Of a stretch of 64,000 bases of DNA, positions 36,530-39,925 are shown in pieces. The stretch's first letter is position 1, and the number at the start of each line of letters is the position of its first letter. The position numbers and the translations under genes were made by a program. Location of the stretch: the NCBI GenBank assembly GCA_965215265.1, contig OZ244048.1:3072001-3136000 (forward strand), in the 5' to 3' direction. Origin of the DNA: Candidatus Poribacteria bacterium (GTDB lineage Bacteria > Poribacteria > WGA-4E > WGA-3G). The notes under the pieces are model-generated. The model did no database searches. It saw only the letters and a list, made by a program, of their open reading frames with translations, and was not told the origin of the DNA.

Positions 36530-36710
36530 TAACCCTTCTCTCCTTTTGTGTACAGAATTATCTAGTTATCCTTGGTAACGTAGGGTCGGATTTGTAACAT
36601 TGTGACATGAAAACGTGGAAGAACACAATAACTCGCCCTAGCATCGAAATTATTATAACATTTTTACAAACATAGGTCAACATTTTTATTAAAAATTACG
36701 TTGTTAAAGT

Positions 36711-36741
36711 AAAGTGCATCCAAAAATGTGTTATATTGAAT
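36711..36741 (+). promoter_or_regulatory. Shared upstream motif copy 1 (AAAGTGCATCCAAAAATGTGTT-N4-TGAAT)
   Basis: 22-bp exact match plus TGAAT at the same spacing as 38906-38936. Confidence 0.75.
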
Positions 36742-36787
36742 AAAGTTAAAAACTATTGTAAAATTAAGAAAGGTAAGGAATACACAA

Positions 36788-37042
36788 ATGAAAAATAGAA
36801 GTTTAAGCCCCAAGCCATCAGCGAAAAACACAGCTATCCGGGTTCCAGGGCAGGTAGTTGAATCCCTACCGGGTAACCTCTTTCGCATAAAATTAGAAAA
36901 TGAGTACAAAGCGGTGGCGTACCTTGCCGGTAAACTGGTGCGACACAAAATTTGGGTTCTCCCAGGTGACCAAGTTACCGTAGAACTCTCTCCGTACGAC
37001 TTGACGCGAGGACGTATTATTTGGCGGAATCCTGAAGTTTAG
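36788..37042 (+). CDS. infA: Translation initiation factor IF-1 (divergent)
   Basis: G.VVESLP...FRIKLEN, LPGD.VTVELSPYDLTRGRII. Confidence 0.93.
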   Translation: MKNRSLSPKPSAKNTAIRVPGQVVESLPGNLFRIKLENEYKAVAYLAGKLVRHKIWVLPGDQVTVELSPYDLTRGRIIWRNPEV

Positions 37043-37054
37043 GGACAGAGAGTT

Positions 37055-38044
37055 ATGGAAGGAATTGTGATAAAAGCACGGGGTGGTACGTATGAAGTCC
37101 AGGTTGGCAAGCAGTGCTATACTTGTTCTCTGCGGCACCACCTCATTGAAGCGGAAAAACGGCGCCTTGCCGAAACAAAAGGGATGCCGTATGTCGAGCT
37201 TGCTGCAGTAGGCGACCGGGTGCATATCTCTACTTCCGCGAGCACATTTGAAAGTGGTTACATTGAGGAAATCCTTCCACGCGATACACAATTCGGTAGA
37301 ATTCGCATGGACGGTTGGCGGCAAGTGATTGTCGCTAATCTTGAAATGCTCCTCATCATCTTTGCGGCACGACAGCCTGCTCTCAAACTACGAATGCTTG
37401 ATCGATTCCTCGTCACAGCGGAAGCCTCAGATGTCATACCAATTATCTGTATTAACAAACTGGATTTGGTGAAATTAGCCGATGTCCAGAGAGAACTCAA
37501 TTTATATGAAGAATTGGGTTATACTGTGGTTTATACAAGTACGGTAACCGGGTTAGGCATTGACGGATTGCGCCGAGTGATGCAGGATAAAATATCAGCA
37601 ATTGTCGGAGTATCAGGTGTCGGGAAATCGTCTTTACTCAACGCACTACAGCCAGGTCTTCATCTGCGAATCGGTGATGTTGACGAGCGTATCCACAAAG
37701 GACGACATACGACAACGGAAGTGATGCTGCTGCCTCTGAAATTTGGAGGGTTTGTTGCCGATACTCCGGGCATCCGGACGCTCGGTTTACTAGAAATTGA
37801 CAACGAACAAGGGATGGATATTTATTTCCCGGAAATGCGTCCTTATATCCCTGAATGCAAATTCGCAGCATGTACACACCAGCATGAACCTGCCTGTGCA
37901 GTCAAACGTGCCGTCGAAACAGGCGATATTACACAACTCCGATATGAAAGTTATTTACGCATTTCCGGATTTAAGGAGGGTAGATATGAACGAAACACAG
38001 ATAGAAAACGTGTCTCCCGAAAAGAGCGACGCCGCAGACGATGA
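37055..38044 (+). CDS. rsgA: Ribosome small-subunit-dependent GTPase
   Basis: Circularly permuted NKLD...GVSGVGKSS...GRHTT...DTPG; CKF..CTH.HEP.CAV zinc finger. Confidence 0.95.
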   Translation: MEGIVIKARGGTYEVQVGKQCYTCSLRHHLIEAEKRRLAETKGMPYVELAAVGDRVHISTSASTFESGYIEEILPRDTQFGRIRMDGWRQVIVANLEMLLIIFAARQPALKLRMLDRFLVTAEASDVIPIICINKLDLVKLADVQRELNLYEELGYTVVYTSTVTGLGIDGLRRVMQDKISAIVGVSGVGKSSLLNALQPGLHLRIGDVDERIHKGRHTTTEVMLLPLKFGGFVADTPGIRTLGLLEIDNEQGMDIYFPEMRPYIPECKFAACTHQHEPACAVKRAVETGDITQLRYESYLRISGFKEGRYERNTDRKRVSRKERRRRR

Positions 38045-38816
38045 GCAAAAGAAGTGGTCAGACGCGATGCAGAATCTGCAGCGTATCATTGAAAAAAGTG
38101 AGCGAAAACTCGTCTACTTTCAAAATCGGGTGAAGCAAGCCCAATTTATGGATCGGCCAAATCTGCGAAAAATACGTGCAGCTAGTGCCCAAATTAGCAT
38201 GCATGCGGCGCACTTGGAAGCGCTTCAAAGTGAATTGCGCGAACTGGAACGGCGTTATAGCGGCGGTATATATCTACGCCAAACTAAAAAAAGCGACCTC
38301 CGCCGAATTTGGGGTTGGCTCAATCGCCCAAGAATACGAGAAATTTTATATCCTGTGAGCTGTACATTTGATGCTTTTAGCCTAGATTGCCAAAACTGGA
38401 TAACCAACCCGAAAACTTACGCTTTCTCAATTTTGATACGGCGTACAAAAACCCTCATTGGGTTTCTCGTCTTTCAAAGCGATGCAGATAGCGTTGTTGT
38501 CAAACTTATTGTTATTCAACCTGATTATCGGGGACGCGGATACGGCATCGATGCGCTAAGTCAGGCAGTGCATTTCGCATTTGAAGAATTGAATGCTGCG
38601 TACGTTACACTACAGGCTCCACCGGATAACGATGTAGCACTCGGCTGCTTTGAGAAGGCTGGATTCCACTACCTCGGTTACACTGATGATGTCAAGCCAT
38701 ACTATACAATGGAAATCGACAAGGACAACTGGGCAAGGGGCACAACATACAACCAGAGTCCCGCACCCCAGCGACTTACAGTTCCCCTCGGCGAACAGAT
38801 AAGAATAGAGCTGTGA
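37986..38816 (+). CDS. Coiled-coil plus RimJ/RimL-like GNAT acetyltransferase
   Basis: AAGGAGG RBS; PDYRGRGYG motif A, FAFEEL, N..A...FEKAGF. Confidence 0.8.
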   Translation: MNETQIENVSPEKSDAADDEQKKWSDAMQNLQRIIEKSERKLVYFQNRVKQAQFMDRPNLRKIRAASAQISMHAAHLEALQSELRELERRYSGGIYLRQTKKSDLRRIWGWLNRPRIREILYPVSCTFDAFSLDCQNWITNPKTYAFSILIRRTKTLIGFLVFQSDADSVVVKLIVIQPDYRGRGYGIDALSQAVHFAFEELNAAYVTLQAPPDNDVALGCFEKAGFHYLGYTDDVKPYYTMEIDKDNWARGTTYNQSPAPQRLTVPLGEQIRIEL

Positions 38817-38905
38817 GTATTGATACCTATGCCTTATAATCTGCCTAAATCGCGAAAAAAGGGAAAATTTGCAAATTTTCCCTTTTTTTTTCACAAAATG
38901 ACTTA

Positions 38906-38936
38906 AAAGTGCATCCAAAAATGTGTTTAAGTGAAT
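38906..38936 (+). promoter_or_regulatory. Shared upstream motif copy 2
   Basis: AAAGTGCATCCAAAAATGTGTT-TAAG-TGAAT. Confidence 0.75.
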
Positions 38937-39114
38937 CATTATCATTATTTATGATGATGATATCCTGTACCGCTATGCGGAAAAGGAGGTGCTTGTTATG
39001 TTAGCAAACCAGAGGTGGTGTGACACCTAAGTGTCGTACCCTTATGGTGTGACGCTTCGGTGTCGCGCCCTTCAGGCCAGGGCAGGGGGCTGAACCCCCT
39101 CTGCCCTCATTTTT
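38935..39114 (+). ncRNA. Candidate structured small RNA/leader with micro-ORF MLANQRWCDT (38998-39030), twin hairpins and terminator
   Basis: 5' hairpin, AAGGAGGT SD, two 29-nt tandem units each folding into a 10-bp stem, GC-rich stem plus T tract. Confidence 0.55.
39079..39114 (+). terminator. Intrinsic terminator
   Basis: AGGGCAGGGGG-CTGAA-CCCCCTCTGCCCT then CATTTTT. Confidence 0.7.
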
Positions 39115-39242
39115 ACCAGCCCAACTCGCTAAGTGTATATTGAGAAGGTTTTAATTTGATTTTTTTTGTATAACATGTTTAAAGGAAGTTAGCCTCGGTA
39201 AACGGATGACTAAACAACTGAAATAAAAAGGAGGTACCTATT

Positions 39243-39344
39243 ATGCGATTCAACCTAGCGACCCTTCACTCAAATTTATCTATGAAAGCCTGCACGTTGC
39301 AGGTGGAAATCATTGTTAGGCGAGGTGCCTCTGCCGATAATTGA
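39243..39344 (+). CDS. 33-aa micro-ORF MRFNLATLHSNLSMKACTLQVEIIVRRGASADN
   Basis: Perfect AAAAGGAGGT SD 7 nt before ATG. Confidence 0.45.
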   Translation: MRFNLATLHSNLSMKACTLQVEIIVRRGASADN

Positions 39345-39550
39345 TTTTTCGTCCTATTCAGGATATTCAGTTAATCCTGAGATTTTCAGGCATAAGAAGT
39401 CCCTGAGAAAGCCTCAATTGGGATGACAATCCTCTAATTTTAATTTTTTAAGCACAAACCAGCTCGTTAAGTTGGTGGAATGCCCAGGGGGCAAAAATTA
39501 CGAAAAACCGGCATAGGCCCTTCAGCCTCAAGCTGCGGGAGTAACTCTCT

Positions 39551-39925
39551 ATGCCAAAATTTAATCCGGATTTCTGGGAGGTTTCGGTTCCACCCGAATA
39601 TTTCGACCGGTTCACTAATGAAGATCATCTCTGGTACCAGCCTCCTAACAGCAAATACGCGCGGACGTACCGCGCGAAACGTCGGAAAGTTCTCAAACAG
39701 ATCCGTCAAATCATCGCGAAAGATCTGACAGCCCGCCAAGCGGAATGTATCCAACTCTACTTCTACGAAGGCAAAACACAAGAAGAGATTGGTAAACTTC
39801 TGGGTATATCGCGCCGCGTTGTCAGTCAACACCTTTTTGGTGTCACGCGTAACGGAAAGCAGATTGGTGGTGCAATTAATAAAATTCGCAAGATGTGCCG
39901 CAAGCAGGGGATTGAATTTCCGTAG
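39551..39925 (+). CDS. Stand-alone sigma-70 region 4 HTH protein
   Basis: LTARQAECIQLYFYEGKTQEEIGKLLGISRRVVSQHL; no region 2 evident. Confidence 0.85.
   Translation: MPKFNPDFWEVSVPPEYFDRFTNEDHLWYQPPNSKYARTYRAKRRKVLKQIRQIIAKDLTARQAECIQLYFYEGKTQEEIGKLLGISRRVVSQHLFGVTRNGKQIGGAINKIRKMCRKQGIEFP

Follow-up and report, generated by a model that had tools for sequence, protein, structure and literature searches.

Across the genomes of Candidatus Poribacteria, a sequence box of about 34 nt and a small gene, here called sig4, nearly always occur together or are missing together. We describe both from a stretch of 64,000 nt (GenBank assembly GCA_965215265.1, contig OZ244048.1, positions 3,072,001 to 3,136,000 of the forward strand; hereafter the window). 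There the box is found twice on the same strand: one copy precedes infA2, a gene for a second translation initiation factor IF1, and the other precedes a small structured RNA with a ten-codon micro-open reading frame (micro-ORF), behind which sig4 follows. The sig4 protein has 124 residues, and the only family that it matches is region 4 of the sigma-70 factors. Taking the comparative evidence together, we consider it fairly probable that sig4 is a self-regulated factor that reads the box at promoters without a -35 element. A preliminary description of the window had grouped the same genes (infA, rsgA, a GNAT acetyltransferase, the RNA, and the sigma-4-only protein) into a translation-control module, possibly governed by that protein through the repeated motif; part of this description stands, and part has to be given up.

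The genome holding the window, G000, is a single contig (C1) of 4,833,177 bp. In what follows f1 to f4 denote families, g1 to g14 genera, G-numbers genomes, and L-numbers fetched loci; G000 belongs to family f1, and G001 is of the same genus as G000. Our phylum sample consists of 121 genomes, each searched for the sig4 protein and for a 20-mer of the box (at most 1 mismatch). The infA and rsgA paralogs were compared in 41 genomes—G000, 24 others of f1, and 16 of f2 to f4—and 14 relatives' infA2 loci were fetched for their neighbourhoods, with the box core counted over 15 loci, window included. A position weight matrix (PWM) of the box was built from 58 unique sites, and 36 further sites were fetched and inspected. 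The controls for box searches were the reversed pattern in genomes and 100 dinucleotide shuffles in the window.

The repeated box

The exact repeat reported in the preliminary description is real: the 22-mer AAAGTGCATCCAAAAATGTGTT lies on the plus strand at 36711-36732 and at 38906-38927, followed in both places by N4 and TGAAT. These are the sole matches in the window even at 3 or fewer mismatches, and the shuffles give a mean chance expectation of 0.00. Searching the whole of G000 with a 17-mer core (at most 2 mismatches) returned the two window sites and one 2-mismatch site at C1:3054758; the reversed control returned 0. In the PWM ranking, copy 2 is the best-scoring site of the genome, and after the two copies the scores drop to 22.5 and 17.1 bits, with control maxima of 15.05 and 11.9 (coordinates and scores of the copies are listed in Table 1).

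Comparison of sites extends the 22-mer, which is the core of a box of about 34 nt with the form AAAAGTGCATCC-N5-TGTGT-WWARGT, WWARGT being weak; a fuller consensus reads (c)AAAAGTGCATCC-RAAAn-TGTGT-WWARGT-GAA. Two invariant blocks are separated by 5 nt. This is not a sigma-70 promoter of the usual kind, with a TTGACA-like hexamer, a spacer of 16-18 bp, and TAnnnT: over the 58 sites the 15 nt ahead of the box show no conserved -35-like hexamer, and a sigma-70 consensus scan called neither copy a promoter, although a match of 9 of 12 falls at 36736-36764, past copy 1. Nor is it a sigma-54 promoter (GG at -24 and GC at -12; TGGCAC-N5-TTGC), as the box has TGCAT and TGTGT in those places.

Two observations bear on where transcription would begin. 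Among targets, sequence similarity stops about 24-28 nt past the first G of GTGCATCC; and copy 2 occupies the gap between the T-run of the preceding terminator and the 5' stem-loop of the small RNA, so the promoter of the small RNA must lie within the box. Two layouts are possible. In layout A, WWARGT would be the -10 element, with the start about 30 nt past the GTGCATCC G, the box at about -34 to -23, and TGTG as an extended -10; in layout B, the start would fall about 22-27 nt past the GTGCATCC G, placing the invariant blocks near -25 and -12. Layout B is hinted at by the 5' hairpin of the small RNA, which begins at nt 27 after the GTGCATCC G. A shared 5' leader (GTGAATCATT, a hairpin, and AUCCU) was considered as a further part of the box and rejected; it is confined to 21 of the 58 sites, mostly the small RNA itself, and hence is not part of the promoter core.

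The third G000 site (C1:3054752, 17.1 bits) is probably a chance match, because its score barely exceeds the control maximum of 15.05; uppS follows 200 nt further on, and two genes separate the site from the housekeeping rsgA, about 2.2 kb away. The 22.5-bit look-alike AAAAAAGTGCAACCAAATCGGTATTTAGGTG has no TGTGT block and precedes a gene pair for an extracytoplasmic function (ECF) sigma factor and a zf-HC2-type anti-sigma factor (G000:C1:404767-405432, minus strand; L091)—it may be that ECF sigma's own promoter. At another locus (L074, genome G037), two identical box-plus-leader copies at positions 103 and 2140, 2 kb apart, flank transposase-like ORFs, which hints that mobile DNA can duplicate box-bearing units.

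Co-occurrence of box and sig4

The 20-mer was found in 92 of the 121 genomes of the phylum sample (control: 0 in all 121) and sig4 in 96. Both are present in 91 genomes and neither in 24; five have sig4 only, and one has the box only. Four of the sig4-only genomes belong to other classes or families, outside the order, and their homologs share 43-48% identity; the fifth, G007, has a 2-mismatch site; the box-only genome, G054, is 90% complete and is also without the small RNA that normally adjoins sig4. At the comparative level, the suggested link between motif and sigma-4 protein would thus appear to hold, with presence and absence agreeing in 115 genomes and a box lying upstream of sig4 at most loci. 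Because the genomes are related, the real weight lies in contrasts within families. Within f3, box and sig4 are present in 4/4 genomes of g8 versus 0/14 of g11, and g14 is also box-free; within f2, they are present in 8/8 of g10 versus 0/1 of g7. The other contrasts are f1 versus f4 and, inside genus g2, G007 versus G002. G002 has no sig4, no box at 2 or fewer mismatches, and a small RNA reduced to residues 128-182 (the last 55 nt); its infA2-rsgA2-GNAT genes are kept.

The box also lies close to sig4 and in a constant orientation. The comparison covered 76 species-representative loci with 1.4 kb or more of sequence ahead of sig4. In 70 of them a site scoring over 20 bits stands within 1.5 kb upstream on the strand of sig4, and those stretches have none on the opposite strand. 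The 70 loci hold 91 such same-strand sites, whose distances to sig4 fall mainly into two groups, 272-305 nt (a box directly ahead of the leader) and 506-590 nt (the small-RNA box).

Among the proteins of the regulon core, sig4 is the only DNA-binding one found. Two other candidate readers were rejected on their distribution: the ECF sigma has orthologs in the box-free genera g11 (14/14), g7, and g14, and the idea of a variant sigma-54 promoter fails in that rpoN is present in 5/5 box-free genomes. Canonical sigma-54 sites (TGGCAC-N5-TTGCW) number 16 in the genome versus 2 in the control.

The sig4 protein

Apart from sigma-70 region 4, including the helix-turn-helix (HTH) of region 4.2, sig4 matches no family. 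A family scan found no match to region 2, so sig4 is not a full sigma-70 factor; the sigma-70/ECF superfamily model TIGR02937 scores 41.9, just below its cut-off of 42.9, and the LuxR/GerE model PF00196 stays below its own (21.2 vs 23.5). Profile matches in the PDB are weak, with E about 2e-3, and fall on region 4 of SigF, FliA, and WhiG. The protein is laid out as an N-terminus with an invariant FNPDFWE motif (MPxFNPDFWE; the conserved N-terminus spans 45 aa), a variable basic linker, the HTH (LTxRQ...LYF...TQEEIGxxLGISRRVVSQH), an insert, GxxRNGKxIGGA, that follows the recognition helix, and a final basic helix.

We found 263 homologous proteins, and nearly all of the 120 listed are 124 aa long; 78 of the 80 best genome loci are labelled Poribacteria, and the other 2 'uncultured bacterium'. 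The 127 candidates compared included no longer or fused form of sig4, although this is weak evidence that none exists. A profile search of 1.84 billion representatives returned 210 clusters at E<=1e-10, mostly proteins of 90-190 aa matched near full length, and since they share with sig4 the N-terminal PDFWE and the same insert, sig4 belongs to a wider family of small proteins, undescribed as far as our searches show. It is not classifiable as a sigma factor; by analogy, it may work in the manner of a single subunit of a split sigma, or of an activator that takes the place of the -35 contact.

The regulon across Poribacteria

Scanning the genome and its relatives for the motif revealed a conserved cis-element common to infA2 and the small RNA: the box core lies upstream of infA2 in 13/15 loci and upstream of the small RNA in 13/15. 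The gene order PhyH / infA2 / (rsgA2-GNAT) / small RNA / sig4 recurs across the family. In the relatives' fetched loci, PhyH and infA2 are present in 14/14, rsgA2-GNAT comes directly after infA2 in 8/14, and sig4 lies within the fetched 6 kb in 9/14. In a set of 23 f1 genomes, the full small RNA is found downstream of infA2 on the same contig in 21 and within 1 kb upstream of sig4 in 16; six have sig4 or the intact RNA relocated, and in one (G002) sig4 is missing.

Relatives use the box more widely than G000. At 2 or fewer mismatches the 20-mer occurs in 39/41 f1 genomes, with up to 13 sites per genome (reversed control 0-3), and the box heads 2-12 units per genome; at most of the 36 inspected sites, a gene or RNA follows on the same strand. 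The targets read include sig4, pairs like orf266/orf270 of the window, genes for an ABC-2 permease and an ABC ATPase, and a PcfJ-like protein, and further LamG/TPR, CBM9/DUF5916, and WD40 proteins and proteins without a known family; genes for predicted secreted proteins are among them. Such diverse targets make the box the signal of a regulon rather than of translation alone—the motif is not specific to a translation module, as had been supposed. Families f2 and f3 have box and sig4 with a single infA, from which it follows that the translation paralogs were added to the regulon in f1. G000 holds a minimal version of the regulon. The unit is, so far as these comparisons indicate, a Poribacteria-specific regulon of mixed content, in which f1 has placed a spare IF1 and spare RsgA GTPases.

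Features of the locus

Table 1. Features of the box-headed locus, with positions in the window and the evidence for each.
Feature	Positions	Strand	Evidence or remark
Box copy 1, AGTAAAGTGCATCCAAAAATGTGTTATATTGAA	36708..36740	+	48 nt upstream of infA2 start codon; PWM 41.8 bits
infA2, IF-1 paralog, 84 aa	36788..37042	+	TIGR00008 92.6 bits (cut-off 61.15); PF01176 77.5 (30.2), 6e-22
rsgA2, RsgA paralog, 329 aa	37055..38044	+	TIGR00157 232.5 bits (cut-off 100); PF03193 179.3 (30), 8e-53
GNAT acetyltransferase, 276 aa, N-terminal extension of ~90 aa	37986..38816	+	PF13302 2.8e-13; PF00583 1e-10
Intrinsic terminator of infA2-rsgA2-GNAT unit, GGGAAAATTT-GC-AAATTTTCCC then T9	38861..38891	+	Read from sequence
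Box copy 2, TTAAAAGTGCATCCAAAAATGTGTTTAAGTGAA	38903..38935	+	Between GNAT terminator and small RNA; PWM 50.1 bits
Small structured RNA, ~180 nt	38933..39112	+	Minimum free energy -88.9 kcal/mol, z = -8.9
Micro-ORF MLANQRWCDT, 10 codons	38998..39030	+	Perfect AAGGAGGT at 38983-38990
Small-RNA intrinsic terminator	39079..39115	+	11-bp stem, 8 G-C pairs, then CATTTTT; 4 stem pairs with compensatory changes
Upstream ORF (uORF), 33 codons, behind AAAGGAGGT	39243..39344	+	ORF list; strong Shine-Dalgarno
Long-range helix, 5' arm, GGTGCCTCTGCC	39324..39335	+	Inside uORF end; 10/12 positions pair with 39510-39521
Long-range helix, 3' arm, GGCATAGGCCCT	39510..39521	+	Just before sig4 ribosome-binding site
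sig4, 124 aa	39551..39925	+	PF04545 48.4 bits (24.1), 6e-13, residues 58-95; also PF08281, within 58-96
orf266, 266 aa, first of pair	40064..40864	+	No Pfam, NCBIfam, or PDB match
orf270, 270 aa, second of pair	40880..41692	+	No Pfam, NCBIfam, or PDB match

The small RNA, first noticed as a micro-ORF RNA, is a conserved and strongly folded unit. It is composed of a 5' stem-loop, a UCCU/AGGA helix over the Shine-Dalgarno sequence, the micro-ORF, a long hairpin that consists of two tandem palindromic repeats, and a terminator; the stop codon of the micro-ORF is located in the 5' arm of the long hairpin. In the alignment of relatives the box is conserved, and so are the 5' hairpin, Shine-Dalgarno sequence, micro-ORF, hairpins, and terminator. 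Standard pairs fill 98.4% of pair cells over 12 genomes, versus 44-53% in slid controls, and compensatory changes occur at 8 pairs, a number that 0/500 shuffles reach; the UCCU/AGGA helix is invariant and hence gives no covariation signal. Shine-Dalgarno sequence, ATG, frame, and stop of the micro-ORF are retained in 12/12 f1 sequences, despite an indel before the stop (TAG to TAA), and the micro-ORF may be translated. When 36000-41000 was searched against Rfam on both strands (E<=1), the sole hit was a minus-strand miRNA model over the terminator, at 21.5 bits against a gathering cut-off of 100; this match is due to chance.

BLAST finds the small RNA in 78/81 other f1 genomes. The f2 homolog has one hairpin and no U-run and continues into the sig4 leader, with a micro-ORF of the form M(K/E/R)LLRWCDR; in g8 of f3 (L061-L063), a predicted membrane-protein ORF of about 100 aa replaces the micro-ORF RNA between the box and the sig4 leader. 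In G001 the copy adjacent to sig4 (L027, ~3055-3130) has lost the TGTGT half of the box by deletion, along with both hairpins and the terminator, and the same genome has a solitary second copy, intact and with a perfect box, at C1:534385-534588 (L059). Since it is found away from sig4 within f1, the small RNA is there, judging by its distribution, an independent gene; in most genomes it may additionally serve as an attenuator before sig4. When the small RNA was tested for trans pairing to the 5' regions of infA2, rsgA2, GNAT, the uORF, sig4, orf266, and orf270, no support emerged (|z|<2 throughout, mononucleotide shuffles).

Between the small RNA and sig4 lies the sig4 leader (39116-39550); a weak sigma-70-like site (9 of 12 matches) is found at 39112-39141. 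A Shine-Dalgarno sequence with a uORF of 24-33 codons sits at the same place of the leader in 16/16 loci from f1, f2, and f3. In all 16, a 12-nt long-range helix, paired at 9-11 of 12 positions over gaps of 20-174 nt, joins the uORF end to the GGCAUAGGCACC box ahead of the sig4 ribosome-binding site; compensatory changes in it turn GGTGCC/GGCACC into GGTACC/GGTACC (f2) and CTGCC/GGCAT into CTGTC/GACAT (L035). After the 3' arm of this helix comes a short hairpin, whose own 3' arm overlaps the sig4 Shine-Dalgarno sequence and which is of the types CCUUC...GAAGG and CCUCA...UGAGG, as read from the sequences. On this arrangement, sig4 looks translationally coupled to its uORF. Pairs like orf266/orf270, which follow sig4 here, are box-preceded at 10 sites: L043, L053, L057, and L060 in f1, and L071, L075, L077, L081, L082, and L083 in f2 and f3.

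Family models confirm the calls of infA, rsgA, GNAT, and the sigma-4-only protein. Membership of the GNAT in the RimI/RimJ/RimL ribosomal-protein acetyltransferases is not supported: only generic GNAT domains pass, and the rimI equivalog model TIGR01575 scores 36.9 bits (cut-off 86.4). With the canonical copies elsewhere in the genome, G000 has two infA genes and two full rsgA genes. Although infA2 belongs to the IF-1 family, it is not single-copy, and the canonical infA at C1:4376764 outscores it (100 bits). Two infA matches occur in G000 and in 24/24 other f1 genomes, versus a single infA in 15/16 genomes of f2-f4. With its signature AYLAGK(L/M)(V/M)xHKIWV in place of the AHISGRMRKFFIKI of canonical infA, infA2 represents what these sequences indicate is an accessory, family-specific paralog clade. 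The canonical infA ORF (L004 1492-1857, minus strand; G000:C1:4376755-4377120) reaches 121 aa when read from a GTG, and its N-terminal stretch is then very basic; its neighbours are CinA-like and J-domain-like genes, not ribosomal-protein genes.

The rsgA2 product has the permuted GTPase and OB domain of RsgA (the RsgA_N model is weak, 19.2 vs 27) and carries in ECKFAACTHQHEPAC a C-x4-C-x-H-x5-C cluster, which we take to be the RsgA zinc motif. Its orthologs are 81-87% identical in g1, g2, g4, and g5 and 71% in g11. A second rsgA copy, 42-51% identical to rsgA2, occurs in 40/41 genomes searched and is presumably the housekeeping gene; in G000 it lies at C1:3056941. This gene (G000:C1:3056941-3057843; L014 4917-5870) lies about 52 kb upstream of the locus, outside the window, and 3' of it is a PhyH-family gene on the opposite strand (L014 5886-6767). 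A PhyH-family dioxygenase gene (35726-36529) also stands divergent from infA2, without a box, and is the left neighbour in 14/14 relatives' loci; both rsgA paralogs therefore have a PhyH neighbour. A near-consensus sigma-70 promoter (36652-36680, minus strand; TTGACC, 17 nt, TATAAT, TG; 11 of 12) faces the PhyH gene of the locus. Genus g5 holds a third rsgA paralog, preceded about 130 nt upstream by a box of 25.6, 25.6, and 35.2 bits (L087-L089; G012, G020, and G016). This third RsgA is about 400 aa long, with a conserved N-terminal extension of about 100 aa (MAMSVYAGTTLREAEKI...) for which there is no Pfam match.

The GNAT gene overlaps the 3' end of rsgA2 by 59 nt and has its own AGGAGG, an overlap that suggests translational coupling. 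The end of the rsgA2 frame (37950-38044) encodes a very basic tail, ...RKRVSRKERRRRR, and the same GNAT overlap is seen in relatives. The terminator behind the unit was missed by our terminator scan because its loop is only 2 nt. In g11 (L090, G032, 1990-3883), a 71% rsgA2-like gene overlaps a GNAT gene with the same N-terminal extension, and this genus lacks both sig4 and the box and has only one infA; the cassette is accordingly older than its link to the regulon. In L090, rpoN lies about 5 kb from rsgA2-GNAT.

Weighing the explanations

In the explanation that we favour, the box would be a lineage-specific promoter element that fires two same-strand units in G000: infA2-rsgA2-GNAT, and the small RNA with its micro-ORF, past whose terminator come the uORF leader, sig4, and two unknown genes. 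The sig4 protein would bind the GTGCATCC box and substitute for the -35 contact, either as an activator or as a sigma-4 surrogate, and would thereby drive its own gene also. After initiation, the level of sig4 could be gated by the small-RNA terminator, the uORF, and the long-range helix to the region before the ribosome-binding site. The accessory paralogs infA2 and rsgA2 would have been put under the regulon by f1. The sequences show directly how the box is conserved, placed, and oriented, how it spreads over many units, that it co-occurs with sig4, and how the RNAs fold; binding of sig4 to the box, activation, the position of the transcription start, and the regulon's signal are all things that we infer from these comparisons.

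Several points weigh against this explanation. As the sampled genomes are related, the agreement in 115 of 121 amounts to only about four independent contrasts, and a pattern that fits an autoregulated box-reading factor would be just as compatible with a gene that some other factor always controls. In 6 of the 76 loci sig4 has no upstream box scoring over 20 bits, and of the sites listed for G017 and G023 (2 or fewer mismatches) none is near their relocated sig4. G000 itself has no box directly before the sig4 leader, so that sig4 there depends on read-through of the RNA terminator or on the weak site at 39112-39141. TAnnnT is found at the candidate -10 place in 14/58 sites. The PcfJ-like gene has its Shine-Dalgarno sequence at nt 25-29, only 16 nt after GTGCATCC, in 3 orthologous sites; this too hints at layout B, whose blocks near -25 and -12 would not resemble the contact that region 4 makes at -35. 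The collecting pattern, moreover, partly imposed positions 1-9 and 14-18 of the 58-site set; in the mismatch searches with the 20-mer, the same positions show, independently, little variation.

Some of these points could equally be explained by another factor, an alternative sigma or an unrelated activator, that reads the box, with sig4 merely a conserved member of the regulon. Co-occurrence and a box upstream of sig4 are expected for any obligatory target; if transcription starts about 25 nt after GTGCATCC, the blocks would stand one helical turn apart, unlike a region-4 site at -35; and the 22.5-bit look-alike does precede an ECF sigma/anti-sigma pair. We nevertheless regard this as unlikely, if worth serious attention, given that both tested candidates (the ECF sigma and rpoN) fail on distribution, rpoN has canonical sites of its own, sig4 is the sole DNA-binding protein in the regulon core, and G002 lost sig4, small RNA, and box together. 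It is also conceivable that sig4, on binding the box, represses a core promoter, that of its own gene included, whose activity comes from the housekeeping or another sigma. The box covers the stretch just ahead of the inferred start, and a protein sitting there would block RNA polymerase; GTGCAT-N6-ATGTGT is an imperfect dyad (RYRCAT N6 ATGYRY), as for dimeric HTH repressors; and an extended -10-like TGTGnTAnnnT is present at some sites (14/58). With no -35 hexamer, however, and most sites without a good -10, there is no obvious autonomous promoter to repress, and all sites read point to a downstream gene, with 0 on the opposite strand upstream of sig4, which fits a promoter better than a symmetric operator; we think repression improbable.

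The preliminary description saw in the locus a co-regulated module that remodels or licenses 30S initiation. Its co-regulation stands, in that a shared control element exists and infA2 and rsgA2 are true accessory paralogs, conserved beside canonical copies; the third rsgA of g5 is box-preceded too, the full small RNA lies downstream of infA2 in 21/23 f1 genomes, and the small RNA and sig4 leader hold two short ORFs with near-perfect Shine-Dalgarno sequences. What does not stand is the dedication to translation, for the regulon is mixed: f2 and f3 have box, sig4, and leader RNA but one infA, the majority of box targets are unrelated to translation, g11 has rsgA2-GNAT without box or infA2, and 6/14 f1 loci have no rsgA2-GNAT within about 5 kb downstream of infA2. 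The GNAT falls below the RimI cut-off, and the small RNA pairs with local 5' regions at |z|<2 throughout. A locus that is mainly a translation-control module of IF1 and RsgA paralogs, GNAT, and micro-ORF RNA, coordinated by the box, is therefore quite improbable. As for the two box copies being chance, or a recent local duplication without function, G000 does have only two strong copies, 2.2 kb apart; relatives, even of other families, carry the box at both positions, and hundreds more sites against 0 control hits in the 121 genomes leave this idea practically no credence.

A broader version of the favoured explanation can be put forward, although we hold it to be decidedly speculative and unlikely as a whole. 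Here sig4 would be a free-standing region-4 surrogate—a cellular sigma appropriation, or a minimal split sigma—that would attach to RNA polymerase and direct it to GTGCATCC promoters without a -35. Combined with a translation-sensing leader (micro-ORF RNA and terminator, uORF and helix) and, in f1, a spare IF1/RsgA output, it would close a feedback circuit, the state of translation initiation controlling how much is made of a specialised kit for 30S initiation and maturation.

Comparison with known systems and significance

The closest likeness in layout is offered by phage T4, at whose middle promoters a MotA box replaces the -35 element; some 12 bp separate it from a sigma-70-type -10, which often has TGn, as described in PMC2988021. 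If WWARGT is the -10, the Poribacteria box would end 10 bp upstream of it, again with no -35 before and with TGTG after. MotA is, however, an AsiA-dependent phage protein with a double-wing fold, whereas sig4 is a cellular protein with a region-4-type HTH; the T4 MotA/AsiA comparison is one of layout and not of homology. In the SigO-RsoA system of Bacillus subtilis, a small sigma-domain-4 protein acts only with a partner and activates its own operon, according to PMC8103513. In contrast, we found no region-2-only partner among the regulon proteins scanned, and sig4 has its conserved 45-aa FNPDFWE N-terminus.

Regulators of the LuxR/GerE and YlxM type are likewise small and contact DNA close to promoters, and their HTH is of the superfamily fold class to which sigma region 4 also belongs. 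GerE, YlxM, and UPF0122 match sig4 weakly and below cut-offs (GerE 21.2 vs 23.5; YlxM 20.4 vs 80), whereas the best matches are to sigma region 4 models, and sig4 has the GxxRNGKxIGGA insert. The likeness to ECF sigmas lies in autoregulation, a lineage-specific promoter motif, a small regulon, and the near miss with TIGR02937 (41.9 vs 42.9); sig4 differs in having no region 2 and no longer homolog found, and the box in the spacing of its blocks, which is 5 nt rather than 16-17.

Leader-peptide attenuators and uORF-coupled leaders are known from trp, erm, and infC-rpmI-rplT, the last with long-range pairing. The sig4 locus resembles them in its short ORFs with strong ribosome-binding sites in structured leaders, in a terminator before the regulated gene, and in a helix from the end of a uORF to the downstream ribosome-binding region. 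It differs in that there is no regulatory codon run and no known antiterminator, and in that the small RNA also occurs free-standing, away from sig4, in several genomes.

We found no description of the box, the small RNA, or sig4 among the papers listed for Poribacteria sigma factors or for a second infA/IF1, supplementary files aside. A regulator with its regulon is of a known kind; what would be new is a factor consisting of region 4 only with an unusual promoter that has no -35. The locus also documents conserved accessory IF1 and RsgA paralogs under common control, which is rare, and it adds two new RNA elements: a structured RNA whose micro-ORF is conserved, and a leader coupled to a uORF. 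The proposed role of sig4 is testable by reporters and purified protein in a laboratory host, so that the organism need not be grown. If sig4 does read the box, a 124-aa protein and a box of about 34 nt (about 40 bits) would make up a compact, self-contained transcription switch, and one that could serve as an orthogonal promoter/regulator pair for engineering. It would come from an uncultivated, sponge-associated phylum, with a promoter layout that fits neither sigma-70 nor sigma-54 rules, and it would show a cell, not a phage, replacing the -35 contact.

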